This document shows, in pieces, positions 581-10,373 of a stretch of DNA of 10,910 nt. Position 1 is the stretch's first letter; every line of letters begins with the position of its first letter. The notes beneath the pieces were generated by a model. It saw only the letters and a list, made by a program, of their open reading frames with translations, made no database searches and was not told the origin of the DNA. Source of the stretch: a virus (lineage: Duplodnaviria; Heunggongvirae; Uroviricota; Caudoviricetes); IMG/VR virus record IMGVR_UViG_3300012275_000008, one strand, 5' to 3'. A program made the position numbers and the translations under genes.

Positions 581-1004
581 TTTTCAGCAGCCCGCGGAGA
601 TGCGCTTTAACCGCGCCCGTGTCCGGCGGGCGTTTGTCACGATTGGTCAGCGTCATATGCGTGATGCCCGTCGGCTNNNNNNNNNNNNNNNNNNNNNNNN
701 NNNNNNNNNNNNNNNNNNNNNNNNNNNNNNTTTTATGGCACGTATAGCCCCTAACCAGCGTAATGGTGAGGGAAACCGCCGCATCACCGGTGATTTTTAT
801 CCGGCTTTTTTGTTCTATGGCGTGAAGAGAGGGGCAAAGCGTCGTCGCAGCCATCATCGTGGTGCATCCGGTGGCAGAGGCTGGCGACTGGCTCCACGTA
901 ATAACTTCATGGTGGAAACGCTTGAAAAGAACCACAGCTGGACACGCTATTTTCTGGCGCGGGAATTGCGTAAATCACTGAAGCCGGAGCGACGACACAG
1001 ATGA
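555..1004 (+). CDS. Phage neck / tail-completion protein (HK97 gp10-like or Mu gp36-like; family uncertain), interrupted by N run
   Basis: 149-codon ORF with a strong SD (GGAGG at 545-549, 5 nt before ATG 555). Stop at 1002-1004 overlaps the next ATG at 1001. An N run (677-730) masks about 19 codons. Position between adaptor and sheath-proximal genes fits a neck protein, but family assignment is tentative. Confidence 0.45.
   Translation: MTTSFLHVDFQQPAEMRFNRARVRRAFVTIGQRHMRDARRXXXXXXXXXXXXXXXXXXXFMARIAPNQRNGEGNRRITGDFYPAFLFYGVKRGAKRRRSHHRGASGGRGWRLAPRNNFMVETLEKNHSWTRYFLARELRKSLKPERRHR
677..730. other. Run of 54 N (assembly gap or masked sequence)
   Basis: Directly visible. Lies inside the 555..1004 ORF; frame is preserved across it. 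Confidence 1.
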
Positions 1005-1756: not shown

Positions 1757-3236
1757 CACCATTCCGTCGAATACGCTGGTTCCGCTGTTTTATGCGGAAA
1801 TGGATAACCAGGCGGCGAATACTGCACAGGACAGCGGAGCATCGCTGCTGATTGGTCATGCCAATAACGGTGCAGAGATTGTTGCCAACAGTCTGGTGCT
1901 GATGCCGTCGGCAGACTATGCACGCCAGATTTGTGGTGCGGGAAGTCAGCTGGCGCGTATGGTCGAGGCTTATCGCCAGACCGACCCGTTTGGTGAACTG
2001 TATGTAATTGCCGTTCCTGAATCCACGGGCGCGGCGGCAACAGTTACGCTGACGGTGACCGGGGCGGCAACCGAAACCGGCACGGTGAATGTTTATGTGG
2101 GACGTACCCGCGTGCAGGCACCGGTGACTAACGGCGATAACGTCACGACGATTGCCAGCAGTATCCAGGATGCCATCAATGCCGTTCCGGCCCTGCCGTT
2201 TACGGCCTCATCTTCGGCTGGCGTGGTCACACTGACCGCGCGTCATAAGGGGCTTTGCGGGAATGAAATTCCTGTCAGCCTCAATTACTACGGCTTTGGT
2301 GGGGGCGAAGTGCTGCCTGCGGGCGTACAGATTGCCGTGGCGACGGGGACCGCCGGAACGGGCTCTCCTGTTCTCACCGGCGCGGTGGCTGCAATGGCGG
2401 ATGAGCCGTTTGATTATATCGGCCTGCCGTTCAACGACACGGCCTCCGTTAACACGCTGGTGACCGAGATGAACGATACCAGCGGTCGCTGGAGCTATGC
2501 GCGTCAGCTGTATGGTCATGTGTATACGGCAAAGATCGGCACGCTGTCAGAACTGGTGACCGCAGGTGACCAGTTTAACCAGCAGCACATTACCCTGGCG
2601 GGGTACGAAAAAGAGACCCAGACGCCTGCCGACGAGCTGGCGGCAAGCCGTACCGCCCGCGCAGCGGTGTTTATCCGCAACGATCCGGCACGTCCCACGC
2701 AGACCGGTGAGCTGGTGGGTATGCTGCCTGCGCCGAAGGGGAAACGGTTCACGATGACCGAACAACAGACCCTGCTGTCTCATGGCGTGGCAACGGCGTA
2801 TGTCGAAAACGGGGTACTACGCATTCAGCGTGATGTCACCACGTACAGGAAAAACGCTTACGGGGTTGCGGATAACAGTTACCTCGACAGTGAGACGCTG
2901 CATACCAGCGCGTATGTACTGCGCAAACTGAAATCCGTCATTACCAGTAAGTACGGGCGTCACAAGCTTGCCAGTGACGGTACCCGCTTTGGTCCCGGTC
3001 AGGCGATTGTCACCCCGGCGGTGATCAAAGGGGAACTGCTGGCAACCTACCGTCAGCTTGAGCGTGCGGGGATCGTGGAAAACTACGAACTGTTTAAGCA
3101 GTACCTGGTTGTGGAGCGTGATGCCAGCGATCCGAACCGCCTGAACACGCTGTTCCCGCCTGACTATGTTAACCAGCTGCGTGTCTTTGCCGTGGTTAAT
3201 CAGTTCCGTCTTCAGTATTCAGAGGAGTCTGCATAA
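1740..3236 (+). CDS. Phage contractile tail sheath protein (Mu gpL-like)
   Basis: 498 aa ORF with N-terminus MTISFNTIPSNTLVPLFYAEMDN typical of Mu-type sheath proteins. Size and position directly upstream of a 118 aa tube gene fit. SD-like AAGGTG lies about 9 nt upstream of the ATG. Confidence 0.9.
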   Translation: MTISFNTIPSNTLVPLFYAEMDNQAANTAQDSGASLLIGHANNGAEIVANSLVLMPSADYARQICGAGSQLARMVEAYRQTDPFGELYVIAVPESTGAAATVTLTVTGAATETGTVNVYVGRTRVQAPVTNGDNVTTIASSIQDAINAVPALPFTASSSAGVVTLTARHKGLCGNEIPVSLNYYGFGGGEVLPAGVQIAVATGTAGTGSPVLTGAVAAMADEPFDYIGLPFNDTASVNTLVTEMNDTSGRWSYARQLYGHVYTAKIGTLSELVTAGDQFNQQHITLAGYEKETQTPADELAASRTARAAVFIRNDPARPTQTGELVGMLPAPKGKRFTMTEQQTLLSHGVATAYVENGVLRIQRDVTTYRKNAYGVADNSYLDSETLHTSAYVLRKLKSVITSKYGRHKLASDGTRFGPGQAIVTPAVIKGELLATYRQLERAGIVENYELFKQYLVVERDASDPNRLNTLFPPDYVNQLRVFAVVNQFRLQYSEESA

Positions 3237-3592
3237 TGGCCCGTATCGGGGGAACCTGTTATTTCAAAATTGACGGTCAGCAGCTATCGCTGACCGGCGG
3301 CATTGAGGTGCCCATGAACAGGACGGTCAATGATGACATCATCGGCCTGGACGGTTCAGTGGACCGCAAGGAAACTCACCGTGCGCCTTATGTCAAAGGG
3401 ACCTTCAAGGTGCCGAAGAATTTTCCGGTGAGCAAAATCACCTCGTCTGATGAGATGACCATCACTGCCGAGCTGGCGAACGGTCAGGTCTATGTACTGT
3501 CGTCTGCCTGGCTGCACGGCGAAGCGAACCATAATGCCGAAGAAGGCACGGTCGATCTTGAGTTCCACGGTGAAGAAGGGGATTACCAGTAA
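3236..3592 (+). CDS. Phage tail tube protein (Mu gpM-like)
   Basis: 118 aa ORF. AGGAG at 3223-3227 is 8 nt upstream of the ATG. TAATG overlap with the sheath stop. Size and position match the sheath-tube pair of Mu-like tails. Confidence 0.85.
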   Translation: MARIGGTCYFKIDGQQLSLTGGIEVPMNRTVNDDIIGLDGSVDRKETHRAPYVKGTFKVPKNFPVSKITSSDEMTITAELANGQVYVLSSAWLHGEANHNAEEGTVDLEFHGEEGDYQ

Positions 3593-3881
3593 TGAAAGAG
3601 CTTGAGTTAAAGAAACCGATTACCGCTCATGGCGAGACACTCTCCGTACTGGAGTTTGATGAGCCCACCGGGAAAGATGTCCGCGAGCTGGGGTATCCCT
3701 ACCAGATGAATCAGGATGAGTCCGTCAGACTTCTNNNNNNNNNNNNNNNNNNNNNNNNNNNNNNGTATCGAAATACATTGTGCGGCTGGCGAAAGTGCCG
3801 CAAAACTCTGTCGACCAGATGTCTCCGGCAGACCTGAATGCAGCGGCGTGGCTTGTGGCCGGTTTTTTCCTCCAGGCCTGA
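3592..3881 (+). CDS. Phage tail assembly chaperone, short form (Mu gp41-like; lambda G / P2 E analogue), interrupted by 30-N run
   Basis: Starts at ATG 3592 (TAATG overlap with tube stop), MKELELKKPITAHGETLSVLEFDEPTGKDVRELGYPYQMNQDESVRL. After the N run (3735-3764) the protein-like continuation is in frame 0, VSKYIVRLAKVPQNSVDQMSPADLNAAAWLVAGFFLQA*, with stop at 3879-3881. The in-frame post-gap read in the original frame is R/C-rich junk. Frame change across the gap attributed to gap length. Confidence 0.6.
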
Positions 3882-4030
3882 CGGCTGAATACCTCACTGA
3901 TCGCTTCTTTGACTGCGCCAGCTACTGGCGCATTAATCCCTTCGAATTGCTGAATATGCCGATCAGTGAAATTCCCTTGCTGGTCAGTCAGGCAAACAGG
4001 ATAGAGCAGGAGAAACGCACACATGGCTGA
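3592..4030 (+). CDS. Tail assembly chaperone, frameshift-extended long form (lambda GT / P2 E+E' analogue)
   Basis: A -1 slip at 3863-3869 continues as ...AGFF-PPGLTAEYLTDRFFDCASYWRINPFELLNMPISEIPLLVSQANRIEQEKRTHG*, ending at TGA 4028-4030, which overlaps the tape measure start at 4023. Track ORF 3716..4030 is this extension frame. Confidence 0.5.
3735..3764. other. Run of 30 N (assembly gap or masked sequence)
   Basis: Directly visible. Protein-like reading is frame 1 before and frame 0 after. Confidence 1.
3863..3869 (+). other. Candidate -1 programmed ribosomal frameshift slippery heptamer T_TTT_TTC
   Basis: In the chaperone zero frame the codons are GGT TTT TTC (3861-3869), so T TTT TTC fits the X_XXY_YYZ slippery motif. 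It lies 3 codons before the chaperone stop. The -1 frame is open from here to 4030. Confidence 0.55.
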
Positions 4031-5858
4031 ATTTGAGCTTAAGGCGTTGATCACCGGTGTCGACAGGCTTTCTCCCGCGCTGTCGAAAATGCAAAAGAAA
4101 ATCCGGGGATTTAAACGCCAGGCGGAAGAAGCGTCACAGGGTGGGCTGGCGCTTGGTGGCGGACTGGCAGCGGGTCTGACGCTTTCCCTGAAATCTTATG
4201 CCGATCAGGAAAACGCCGCCACCGGGCTGAAAGTTGCCATGATGGATGCGAACGGTGAGGTCGGAAAGAGCTTTCAGGACATCAATAAACTGGCTATTGG
4301 TCTGGGTAACCAGCTACCCGGTACAACGGCTGATTTCCAGAACATGATGCAGATGCTGGTGCGTCAGGGGATCCCGGCAGAAAACATTCTTGGCGGTGTG
4401 GGGAAAGCGACTGCTTATCTTGCGGTACAACTGAAAAAAACACCGGAAGCGGCTGCTGAGTTTGCCGCAAAGATGCAGGATGCTACCGGAACGGCGTCAG
4501 AAGACATGATGGGGCTGTTCGACACTATCCAGAAGGCGTTTTATCTGGGCGTTGACGATACCAACATGTTGTCCTTCTTCACTAAAACCAGCTCTGTTCT
4601 GAAGATGGTGAACAAGGACGGTCTTCAGGCTGCACAGAGCCTTGCCCCCATCAGCGTCATGATGGATCAGATGGGGATGAACGGGGAGTCGGCAGGTAAT
4701 GCCCTGCGAAAAGTTATCCAGTCCGGATTAAGCGTTAAGAAAATCAGGGACGTCAATAAAGTCATGGCCCGCCAGAAACTCGGGGTACAGCTCGATTTTA
4801 CTGACGGCAAAGGAAGTTTTGGCGGTCTTGATAACATGTTCAGGCAACTGGCAAAGCTGCGAAAACTGACCGACGTTAAGCGAACAGGTGTACTTAAGGC
4901 AATATTTGGTGATGATGCCGAAACCCTTCAGGTGGTCAATGCACTAATCGATAAAGGAAAGGATGGCTACGATCAGATCCAGCAGAAGATGAATAAACAG
5001 GCCAGCCTGAATAAACGTGTTCAGGCACAGCTTGGTACGCTGTCCAACCTGTGGGAGGCAATGACGGGGACCGCAACTAACGGTCTTGCAGCTATTGGCG
5101 GCGCATTTTCTGGTGACGCTAAAAATATCACGCAATGGCTGGGGGAGTTAGGGGAAAAATTCACGAAGTTTGCGGATGAAAATCCCCGGGTTATTCGCGG
5201 CGTCGTCGGGCTTGCTGCCGGTCTTGCGATTCTGAAACTGGGATTGATGGGCGTTGGCGGTGCCATCAGTATTGTCAGCAGGATCATGTCGATGACGCCG
5301 ATTGGCATGATTGCGACGGCGATAGCCCTGGCTGCGGGATTAATTATCACTAACTGGGATGTTGTCGGACCTTATTTTAAGAAACTCTGGGAAACCATTG
5401 GTCCTTATTTTGAGGCTGGCTGGGAACTTCTGAAGAAAGTTTTTGCCTGGTCGCCGCTGGGGATGGTCATCAATAACTGGGGACCGGTTGTTAAGTGGTT
5501 TCAGAATATGTGGGACAAGCTGAAGCCAATTATTGAGTGGTTTACCGACAGTTCCGGTGACACGGTCGATGCCATTAACTCTGCGCAGTGGGGCGCGGGT
5601 GCTTATGATGCTTATGGGACGGGAATACCGGCGCGGGGATACACACCTTATCCGGCGGTAGATCCGGCTCAGTCAAACAACGCCTCCGATGCCACAGGCC
5701 CGAATCCCTTCATGATTAACAAAGCTTCTGCGCCAAAAGTTGATGGTGAGATCAAGGTCTCTTTTGTGAATTCGCCTCCGGGTATGCGGGTTATGGAAAC
5801 GCGATCCAGCGGTTTTGATGTCAGCCATGATGTTGGCTATACGCGCTTTGGCAGGTAA
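4023..5858 (+). CDS. Phage tail tape measure protein
   Basis: 611 aa ORF directly downstream of the chaperone/frameshift pair. Has a long hydrophobic Gly/Ala-rich segment (VIRGVVGLAAGLAILKLGLMGVGGAISIVS...IGMIATAIALAAGLIITNW) followed by W/F-periodic repeats, both typical of tape measure proteins. Confidence 0.9.
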   Translation: MAEFELKALITGVDRLSPALSKMQKKIRGFKRQAEEASQGGLALGGGLAAGLTLSLKSYADQENAATGLKVAMMDANGEVGKSFQDINKLAIGLGNQLPGTTADFQNMMQMLVRQGIPAENILGGVGKATAYLAVQLKKTPEAAAEFAAKMQDATGTASEDMMGLFDTIQKAFYLGVDDTNMLSFFTKTSSVLKMVNKDGLQAAQSLAPISVMMDQMGMNGESAGNALRKVIQSGLSVKKIRDVNKVMARQKLGVQLDFTDGKGSFGGLDNMFRQLAKLRKLTDVKRTGVLKAIFGDDAETLQVVNALIDKGKDGYDQIQQKMNKQASLNKRVQAQLGTLSNLWEAMTGTATNGLAAIGGAFSGDAKNITQWLGELGEKFTKFADENPRVIRGVVGLAAGLAILKLGLMGVGGAISIVSRIMSMTPIGMIATAIALAAGLIITNWDVVGPYFKKLWETIGPYFEAGWELLKKVFAWSPLGMVINNWGPVVKWFQNMWDKLKPIIEWFTDSSGDTVDAINSAQWGAGAYDAYGTGIPARGYTPYPAVDPAQSNNASDATGPNPFMINKASAPKVDGEIKVSFVNSPPGMRVMETRSSGFDVSHDVGYTRFGR

Positions 5859-8323: not shown

Positions 8324-8871
8324 TGAGGACGATTGAAGCCATGCAGCGACAACTCCTCGGCCTGATTGGGCGGGCCGTGGTGAAAAGCATCAGTGCCGCC
8401 ACGAAATGTCAGACCGTGGATGTGTCCCTGATTGCCGGTGAACCCAAAGCCGGGGTTGAACATCTTGAACCCTACGGTTTTACCGCAAGGGCAAACAGCG
8501 GTGCGGAAGCGGTGGTGTTGTTTCCGGATGGCGACCGTTCTCATGCGGTGGTTGTTACGGTGTCGGACCGGCGCTACCGCCTGAAAGGGCTGCAGACGGG
8601 TGAGGTGGCTGTCTATGACGATCAGGGGCAGTCTGTGACGCTGACCCGGGAGGGGATCGTGGTGGACGGTGCAGGGAAAACGATCACGTTTCGCAATGCA
8701 CCTGAAGCACGTTTTGAAATGGATCTGGAAGTGACCGGACAGGTGAAAGACCTGTGCGACTCCGGCGGCACCACCATGTCAGCGATGCGGCTTGCCTATA
8801 ACGGGCATCGTCACAGGGAGAACGGTCAGGGCAGTAACACCGACAAACCTGATAAAGCGATGGAGGCATGA
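8323..8871 (+). CDS. Baseplate central spike / assembly protein V (Mu gp45-like)
   Basis: 182 aa ORF with LEPYGFTARANSGAEAVVLFPDGDRSHAVVVTVSDRRYR, a gpV-type pattern. C-terminal HRH motif. AGGAGG at 8307-8312 upstream. Start overlaps the hub stop (TGATG). Confidence 0.8.
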   Translation: MRTIEAMQRQLLGLIGRAVVKSISAATKCQTVDVSLIAGEPKAGVEHLEPYGFTARANSGAEAVVLFPDGDRSHAVVVTVSDRRYRLKGLQTGEVAVYDDQGQSVTLTREGIVVDGAGKTITFRNAPEARFEMDLEVTGQVKDLCDSGGTTMSAMRLAYNGHRHRENGQGSNTDKPDKAMEA

Positions 8872-9288
8872 TGGAACTGTGGCTGACGGTGAACGGTAAA
8901 CGCACCTGCGCCAGCGCACCGCTGGATCCGCTGACCCGCGCCGTGGTGATTTCCCTGTTCACCTGGCGGCGGGCGGAGCCTGATGACAATGCCGACGTCC
9001 CGATGGGATGGTGGGGGGATACCTGGCCTGCGGTACAGAATGACCGTTACGGCTCCCGACTGTGGCTGCTTCAGCGCAGCAAACTGACCAATCAGCTGGT
9101 GCAGACGGTAAGGGGATATATCCGCGAATGCCTGCAATGGATGATTGATGACGGCGTGGTGTCCCGTATTGATCTGGATATCCACCGCACCGGGATTAAT
9201 GAGCTGGGTAACAGTATCACCCTCTGGCGTCGTGATGGACCAGTAGTGATTTCTTTTGATGATCTGTGGAGTGCGATAACGCATGGCG
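8868..9288 (+). CDS. Baseplate protein, phage GP46 family (Mu gp46-like); 3' end hidden in N run
   Basis: MMELWLTVNGK...SLFTWRRAEPDDNADVPMGWWGDTWP...RLWLLQRSKLT... matches the GP46-family pattern. Family members are about 140 aa as I recall, which places the stop at or inside the N run starting 9289. Start could be ATG 8868 or 8871 (GGAGG at 8862-8866). Confidence 0.7.
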
Positions 9289-9368
9289 NNNNNNNNNNNN
9301 NNNNNNNNNNNNNNNNNNNNNNNNNNNNNNNNNNNNNNNNNNNNNNNNNNNNNNNNNNNNNNNNNNNN
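9289..9368. other. Run of 80 N (assembly gap or masked sequence)
   Basis: Directly visible. Probably hides the gp46-like stop and the gp47-like start. Confidence 1.
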
Positions 9369-10373
9369 CGTAACGATTTATTCGCCAGGCTGGACGTCAG
9401 CGACACGCTCCGGCGCATGGATGAAGACGTGCGGGCAAAGGTGTATGCGGCGGCGCTGCATACGGTCTACGGTTACATCGATTATCTGGCAATGAATATG
9501 CTGCCTGACCTGTGCGATGAGTCCTGGCTGGCGCGACATGCTGCGATGAAACGGTGTCCGCGCAAGGGAGCCACGGTTGCCAGCGGGTATATGCGCTGGG
9601 AAGGTGTCAGCGATGGCCTGAAGGTGACTGCCGGGAGTGTTATTCAGCGCGATGACCTGGTGCAGTACACGACAACTGACGATGCAATCAGCTCCGGTGG
9701 TGTCCTGCGCGTGCCGATCGCCTGCTCAAGTGCAGGTGCGGTCGGTAACGCTGACGACGGTACGGCATTAATCCTGGTCACGCCGGTGAATGGTCTGCCG
9801 TCTTCCGGTGTGGCTGACACCCTGACAGGCGGATTTGATACTGAAGAGCTGGAAACGTGGCGCGCCCGCGTCATTGAGCGGTATTACTGGACGCCGCAGG
9901 GCGGGGCTGACGGGGACTATGTCGTCTGGGCTAAAGAAGTGCCTGGCATTACCCGCGCATGGACATACCGACACTGGATGGGAACGGGGACTGTCGGTGT
10001 GATGATTGCCAGCAGTGACCTGATTAATCCCATTCCGGAAGAATCAACGGAAACGGCGGCAAGACAACATATCGGGCCACTGGCCCCGGTGGCAGGCTCT
10101 GATTTGTATGTGTTCAGGCCGGTGGCACATACGGTGGATTTTCATATCCGTGTGACGCCGGACACACCGGAAATACGGGCTGCCATCACCGCGGAGTTGC
10201 GTTCGTTCCTGCTGCGTGATGGTTATCCGCAGGGAGAACTGAAGGTGTCACGTATCAGTGAAGCGATTTCCGGTGCGAACGGGGAATACAGCCATCAGTT
10301 GCTTGCACCGGCGGACAATATCACCATTGCGAAAAATGAGCTGGCGGTTCTGGGGGCGATTTCATGGACGTGA
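9369..10373 (+). CDS. Baseplate J-like wedge protein (Mu gp47-like / P2 gpJ-like); 5' end hidden in N run
   Basis: About 335 visible codons after the gap ending at TGA 10371-10373, with baseplate-J-like sequence throughout. The track fuses this with the gp46-like ORF across 80 N, but size and family argue for two genes with the junction masked. Confidence 0.75.

Follow-up and report, generated by a model that had tools for sequence, protein, structure and literature searches.

Frameshifting in tail chaperone genes is widely conserved among long-tailed phages (PMC5009743). In phage P2, a -1 shift at the sequence TTTTTTG gives rise to two proteins, of 91 and 142 aa, with no downstream structure (PMC3091744); this -1 frameshift in the FETUD tail operon goes back to Christie et al. 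2002, as cited in PMC3091744. The P2 record lists E (91 aa) and E+E' (142 aa), the latter as a join at the 'site of -1 translational frameshift', with GGT TTT TTG as the slip sequence and an overlap of 8 nt into gene T, and P2 makes a substantial amount of E+E' (PMC5009743). In phage lambda, neither of the two chaperone products is present in the virion, and the chaperone of phage Mu has been reported to use -2 frameshifting (PMC5009743).

The locus described here is carried by a window of 10,910 nt (the whole stretch of DNA that was analysed). This window holds genes for the sheath, tube, chaperone, tape measure, and baseplate of a contractile, Mu-like tail, which form the tail module of an SfV-like prophage. 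In an E. coli prophage that is 98% identical, the gene order according to PGAP is head-tail connector, head closure, tail terminator, DUF2635, sheath and tube, followed by a 'phage tail assembly protein' (270 nt), 141 unannotated nt, the tape measure gene, a DNA circularization protein, and baseplate proteins. The tail tube gene of the window lies directly 5' of the chaperone gene, whose start its stop overlaps, and the layout between the tube and tape measure genes is one of two overlapping frames, as in chaperones of the lambda G/GT type. Judging from the sequence and its relatives, a programmed -1 ribosomal frameshift at U_UUU_UUC very probably yields a long form of this chaperone, of 139 aa. 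The features concerned are the following:

3236..3592, + strand: tail tube gene, 118 aa (PF10618 Tail_tube, E=2.4e-33; 'phage tail tube protein' according to PGAP in E. coli relatives)
3592..3881, + strand: tail assembly chaperone, short form, equivalent to 'G' or 'E' (PF10109 Phage_TAC_7; 'phage tail assembly protein' of 270 nt in the SfV and E. coli annotation)
3735..3764, no strand: run of 30 N standing for 10 nt (GGCGCATGTG), from alignment with SfV and E. coli 50EVA
3863..3869, + strand: putative slippery heptamer T_TTT_TTC, its phase read from the sequence and translation
3869..4030, + strand: candidate -1 frame extension, equivalent to 'T' or E', with 53 codons (PPGLTAEY...EKRTHG) and the TGA at 4028-4030, from translation
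3914..3932, + strand: 8-bp hairpin TGCGCCAG-CTA-CTGGCGCA within the extension, from folding, consensus fold and synonymous-site invariance
4023..5858, + strand: tape measure gene, 611 aa (PF10145 PhageMin_Tail, E=9.9e-27; 'phage tail tape measure protein' according to PGAP)

The 30 N correspond to 10 nt in SfV and in the E. coli prophage, as seen in a three-way alignment, and in all full-length hits listed the 1065 query bases around the gap are matched by 1045 record bases. The gap content was taken from these relatives, not read directly in the window. With the 10-nt fill, the pre-gap frame (3592, position modulo 3 of 1) joins the post-gap frame with a position modulo 3 of 0, which is exactly the one that a preliminary description of this DNA had assumed for the chaperone, so that the resolution of the gap by alignment with relatives leaves that frame in place. 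Translation from the ATG at 3592 to the TGA at 3879-3881 then gives an 89-aa chaperone, residues 4-86 of which match PF10109 ('Phage tail assembly chaperone proteins, E, or 41 or 14') with 59.4 bits for a cut-off of 25, this match spanning the gap. The same correction disposes of an open reading frame that had been listed at 3716..4030 and that, on the reading of the preliminary description, would not be a separate gene: its listing results solely from an N-run that exceeds the actual gap by 20 nt. With the gap at its correct length, ATG 3716 lies outside the -1 frame, whose opening begins at 3720.

In the 0 frame, positions 3858-3881 read GCC GGT TTT TTC CTC CAG GCC TGA, and the T_TTT_TTC heptamer that had been proposed at 3863-3869, three codons ahead of the chaperone stop, can be read there directly. 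After a slip by one base, the -1 frame continues as CCT CCA GGC CTG ACG GCT GAA TAC..., which places the junction at ...AGFF/PPGLTAEY.... This frame does stay open to the TGA at 4028-4030, as had been noted; the number of codons given at the time, 51, has to be replaced by 53 sense codons counted from 3869, of which 49 lie past the 0-frame stop. The predicted long form reaches 139 aa, versus 89 aa for the gap-filled short form, and its stop overlaps the tape measure ATG (4023) by 8 nt (ATGGCTGA). The +1 frame shuts two codons past the chaperone stop, whereas the -1 frame is open up to the start of the tape measure gene. More generally, the reading put forward beforehand, with a long form ending inside the tape measure start and a geometry of the chaperone type, was favoured by every point that could be checked computationally.

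The first three codons of the -1 frame (3869-3877) encode Pro-Pro-Gly, a classic EF-P-dependent stall motif. A role as a functional stall motif was considered and dropped; relatives have PAG, PQG, PSG, or PRD at these positions, and Pro-Pro-Gly is therefore probably incidental.

In the mechanism proposed here, most ribosomes would stop at TGA 3879 and release the 89-aa chaperone, and a minority would slip back by one base on U_UUU_UUC. The P site and the A site would each hold tRNA-Phe, re-pairing from UUU-UUC to UUU-UUU, and the slipped ribosomes would read the 53 codons of the -1 frame to TGA 4028-4030, producing the 139-aa form with AGFFPPGLTAEY as its predicted junction peptide. By analogy with lambda G/GT and P2 E/E+E', the N-terminal part shared by both forms would coat the tape measure protein, the C-terminal domain encoded in the -1 frame would recruit tube subunits, and a fixed slip frequency would set the ratio of short to long form. 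That the slippage is ribosomal, how efficient it may be and what the two domains would do are points that we infer. The likeness to lambda lies in the place, between the major tail/tube and tape measure genes, and in the logic, which pairs a short chaperone with a less abundant form extended at its C terminus, at a fixed ratio. Lambda differs in its slippery motif (G_GGA_AAG) and its non-contractile tail, it has no detectable sequence similarity to the window, and its ratio of about 30:1 need not apply to the window.

Conservation of the slip site was followed in loci from 20 distinct species and in phages SfIV, ST64B, phiP27, BgVeeders33, and AH07, with further loci from Hamiltonella, Enterobacter, and Cronobacter, and with P2 and Mu for comparison. 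In all 24 loci analysed, P2 included, T_TTT_TTN is found in phase at the homologous GF(F/L) column (G/R/N-F-F(L)); these loci span Enterobacterales, Burkholderia, Derxia, and P2, and the Derxia relative is at 38% identity. The presence of a slippery heptamer at the same position in homologues, which had been suggested as a check, is thereby established for one and the same alignment column, down to this level of identity. The three extra loci of Hamiltonella, Enterobacter, and Cronobacter agree, bringing the in-phase T_TTT_TTN to 27 loci in total. In relatives, the last base of the heptamer is C or T, and the residue ahead of it is Gly, Arg, or Asn, the third base of its codon always being T. 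In the 24 loci, the -1 frame extends over 50-59 codons from the heptamer and its stop falls no farther than about 8 nt from the tape measure start, with a predicted long form of 136-142 aa in each of them and a short form of 87-111 aa. When the fused protein was used as a query in tblastn, the chaperone and the extension were recovered as two pieces in EPP-1, AH07, F1055, SfIV, ST64B, phiP27, and BgVeeders33, and different frames for the two halves were confirmed in SfIV, ST64B, phiP27, BgVeeders33, and AH07, the five loci fetched.

An alternative would be that the -1 frame represents a small separate gene initiated at a start codon of its own, which in the window would be the GTG at 3848-3850, located 15 nt ahead of the slip codon and the only start codon of the -1 frame 5' of the heptamer. 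Phage vB_EcoM-689R6 indeed has an annotated 61-codon ORF ('hypothetical protein') beginning at that GTG, and PHROG 32181 groups such ORF calls. However, in 16 of the 24 loci the part of the -1 frame that runs from its last stop to the heptamer contains no ATG, GTG, or TTG, and the extension therefore generally cannot be initiated by itself; where a start codon is present, its type differs between relatives, and no Shine-Dalgarno sequence precedes GTG 3848. Besides, it is the length of the long form that is conserved and not that of the short form, and the heptamer is invariant at synonymous sites (see below), a constraint that an independent gene would not need. Taken with these observations, a gene of its own in this frame is very improbable.

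The frameshift is further supported by the pattern of variation on both sides of the heptamer. Mean pairwise differences at the three codon positions were calculated from 12 ungapped sequences of the SfV subgroup. Over the 82 codons 5' of the heptamer, they amount to 0.17/0.11/0.53 for positions 1/2/3 of the 0 frame, and 3' of the chaperone stop to 0.23/0.14/0.44 for positions 1/2/3 of the -1 frame, the peak being at -1 third positions. By this sequence measure, selection passes from the 0 frame to the -1 frame at the heptamer, which also bears on the earlier question of whether the -1 region could prove untranslated: that region carries protein-coding constraint in the -1 frame. Residues A103, W106, P110, A128, R130, and I131 of the extension are invariant among sequences that are 35-83% identical. 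At the nucleotide level, the chaperone has 44 degenerate codons with a conserved residue, only six of which are nucleotide-invariant in 11 sequences; the consecutive codons GGT TTT TTC make up three of these six, with three synonymous sites fixed.

These data bear on whether there is any recoding at all. Positions 3882-4022 might simply be an untranslated spacer, with a heptamer and an open frame that are coincidental, or the arrangement might be an assembly or pseudogene artefact; this would agree with the RefSeq and PGAP annotation of SfV, SfI, SfII, and E. coli, which has no feature in the 141 nt, and with the existence of error-laden fused 'proteins' of 137-139 aa in noisy assemblies. Neither the third-position periodicity in the -1 frame nor the invariant residues of the extension would be expected of a spacer, and the same chaperone/extension arrangement is found in 895 E. 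coli genomes at a coverage of at least 80%, as well as in distant genera. Coincidence is also at odds with the composition of the window: TTTTTTY occurs a single time on its + strand in 10.9 kb, in-phase X_XXY_YYZ heptamers are found once in 2684 codons of the other genes, and the -1 frame is open for at least 53 codons at only 13% of positions. The resulting chance estimate for a heptamer followed by such an open -1 frame is well below 1e-3. Absence of recoding is thus hardly credible.

The preliminary description had also likened the locus to P2 E/E+E', and this turns out to be more than an analogy. The short forms of P2 and of the window both belong to PF10109 (P2 E+E' scores 47.5 bits on the same model), and the profile alignment puts the two slip sites in one column, VVGFL in P2 and VAGFF in the window. 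The GGT TTT TTN context is shared, with a T6 run at the G-F codons that end the PF10109 domain; the products are of similar sizes (91 and 142 aa in P2, 89 and 139 aa in the window), both long forms end 8 nt inside the tape measure gene, and P2 and the window are alike in lacking a canonical downstream stimulator. The two loci differ in the end of the heptamer, which is G in P2 and C in the window, in the 0-frame stop, which lies six codons past the heptamer in P2 and three in the window, and in the surrounding tail module, which is Mu/SfV-like in the window and not P2-like. They also differ in that PF06528 (Phage_P2_GpE) matches P2 E+E' with 76.3 bits, whereas it finds no match in the long form of the window (E up to 1) or in the extension alone (E up to 10). 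An hhalign comparison of the long-form family with E+E' gave E=3.5e-4 over 118 columns (probability 37%, identity about 22%) and matched the A..W..P.EL motif of the extension to AVIFHWPPSEL of P2; a remote homology between the extension and the C-terminal domain of the P2 protein is therefore possible. As far as can be judged at this level, the locus most likely works like P2 E/E+E', whose shift has been demonstrated experimentally, and is homologous to it, while being part of a tail module of the Mu/SfV type.

The nearest neighbours of the window in other respects are those of Mu, with a sheath like Mu L, a tube like Mu M, DUF2635, a DNA circularization protein, and the gp46/gp47 baseplate proteins. 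The chaperones are less alike: Mu gp41 is a 144-aa protein that matches PF10109 weakly (24.7 bits) and belongs to PF23746 (Gp41_Mu), for which the chaperone of the window has no match. The open alternative frame of Mu gp41 is +1/-2 (3950-4117 of the Mu locus, L029), whereas the window has a -1 frame on a T-run, like P2.

The same long form could in principle arise from slippage of RNA polymerase on the T6 run, with an extra U in a fraction of the transcripts and no slip of the ribosome. In favour of this, conservation concerns six or seven consecutive T, the heptamer by itself shifts ribosomes poorly in a reporter, and the relatives revealed no stimulator that is conserved (see below). A variant is also worth citing in this respect. 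The heptamer is unchanged in 79 of 80 near-identical IMG/VR loci, a scan that gave only loci at 99-100% identity and hence informs on population invariance, not on diversity. The exception, L082 (1448-1470), reads GCT GGG TTT TTT CTC versus GCT GGT TTT TTC CTC; through two synonymous differences, its T6 run is kept but moved by one base, which breaks the X_XXY_YYZ phase. This may be a homopolymer-adjacent sequencing error or a real variant. On the other side, the homologous site of P2 was described and annotated as a translational -1 frameshift, and the X_XXY_YYZ phase of the run holds throughout the 27 diverse loci. In addition, for transcriptional slippage to be efficient in enterobacteria, a run of about 8-9 or more A/T is required, six or seven giving very little, which counts against polymerase slippage here. 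Slippage of the polymerase is accordingly an improbable source of the long form, and it is the P2 precedent together with the short length of the run that leads us to favour ribosomal slippage.

How efficient ribosomal slippage would be at this site is best considered in the light of reporter data. In E. coli, the motifs of the H_HH.U_UU.Y type rank with the best -1 shifters (Sharma et al., PMC4066793). In an E. coli reporter, UUUUUUC gave 0.12% frameshifting when bare, 0.89% with the IS911 stimulators, and 7.6% with the IS3 pseudoknot, and the bare P2 motif UUUUUUG gave 0.118% (PMC4066793). P2 yields much E+E' even though its bare motif is weak, and therefore context must help.

A conserved stimulator at the canonical spacing of 5-9 nt was found neither with RNAfold on 3870-3969, nor with RNAalifold on 11 relatives, nor in per-locus folds. 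A 4-bp hairpin (GGCC-UGAC-GGCU, 3875-3886) does stand at a 5-nt spacing and is not kept in six of 11 close relatives. Reading of the sequence and of the relatives' alignment revealed no convincing or conserved Shine-Dalgarno-like stimulator upstream, and an Rfam scan of 3500-4300 with E up to 1 returned no relevant match. A terminator-like call at 3849-3861 followed by the T-run was rejected: its 5-bp stem includes two G-U pairs, its stem bases vary in relatives, and terminator-like calls are at chance level, with 2 found for 1.2 expected. Some distant relatives carry strong hairpins of their own, in BgVeeders33 (L026, about 663-713), from +8 nt after the heptamer, and in L017 (about 2754-2773), where an 8-bp GGGCUCGG/CCGAGCCC stem begins +2 nt after it. 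With such hairpins and no common element, stimulators seem to be lineage-specific rather than shared.

Within the extension, 44 nt past the heptamer, a perfect 8-bp hairpin with a YTA loop is present at 3914-3932, well beyond the 5-9 nt at which classical stimulators stand. Its stem is invariant in the enterobacterial SfV subgroup, with all four synonymous sites (in TGC, GCC, TAC, and CGC) unchanged in 11 diverged relatives, and the loop base varies. The hairpin is kept in loci L015, L020, L021, L114, and L115, is lost in L016, L019, and the Hamiltonella locus L113, and is absent from the SfIV, ST64B, and P2 groups. The frameshift can therefore not depend on it as a rule, and a role as a classical stimulator is improbable. 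It is doubtful, if conceivable, that it serves as a non-canonical modulator of frameshifting or as a separate regulatory RNA or DNA site in the extension. In the former case, it could pause a leading ribosome, and a following ribosome about 30 nt behind would then sit on U_UUU_UUC. Such pausing, if it occurs, would explain how useful amounts of the long form are obtained from a heptamer that is weak by itself. Alternatively, the element could act as an inverted repeat in DNA. In the window, the hairpin is enclosed by a 10-bp perfect complement between 3894-3903 and 3960-3969 (TCACTGATCG / CGATCAGTGA), and the fold of 3870-3969 has a z of -3.44. The 10-bp pairing belongs to this lineage only; L006 has not retained it, and the 11-sequence consensus fold did not recover it.

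The long form is not annotated in SfV, SfIV, ST64B, phiP27, AH07, BgVeeders33, vB_EcoM-689R6, or the PGAP E. coli records, and the listed feature names of SfI and SfII show none either. Among the homologues of the chaperone, no NCBI protein of about 139 aa was found, and NCBIfam models match neither this long form nor P2 E+E'. Three public 'proteins' of 137-139 aa (P0001, P0008, and P0115) were considered as natural fusions and discarded: each comes from a single noisy assembly and is joined by indels away from the heptamer. The survey of Xu et al. 2004 reportedly covered most tailed phages sequenced by then. The observation is real, and the frameshift proposed here is well supported and ordinary, the phenomenon being textbook for long-tailed phages, and the finding leaves the understanding of frameshifting and of tail assembly unchanged. 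Its value is mainly one of annotation, for records in which the 141 nt are empty or taken up by a spurious 'hypothetical protein'. The module was matched in 1089 of 5426 complete E. coli genomes, about a fifth of them, and occurs in SfV, SfI, SfII, SfIV, ST64B, and phiP27. The P2-type slip site, a T-run at the G-F codons ending PF10109, thereby reaches across Mu/SfV-like tails, Mu itself using -2, and offers an easy criterion by which the frameshift can be annotated throughout this large family.

As a side observation, the four N-runs of the window (677-730, 1235-1244, 3735-3764, and 9289-9368) are not faithful in length: in E. coli A17 (L111), the runs of 54, 30, and 80 N correspond to 111, 10, and 48 nt, respectively. 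ORFs listed across N-runs may therefore be misframed or wrongly fused. The mechanically listed ORFs 8868-10373, 555-1004, 1001-1249, and 1230-1577 disagree with the PGAP genes of the 98% identical E. coli locus. There, two genes, gp46 (8892-9317) and the baseplate J/gp47 gene (9304-10362), take the place of the first, and a hypothetical protein (555-1061) and the tail terminator (1058-1618) that of the others. The 501-aa ORF and the short mechanical ORFs are most likely N-run artefacts.

Finally, a contig of Edwardsiella hoshinae NBRC 105699 (L003) carries an SfV-like tail module essentially of the E. coli/Shigella type, with a chaperone that is 99% identical and a GCC GGT context shared with the window, which suggests that the window derives from this record, or else a recent transfer or contamination.
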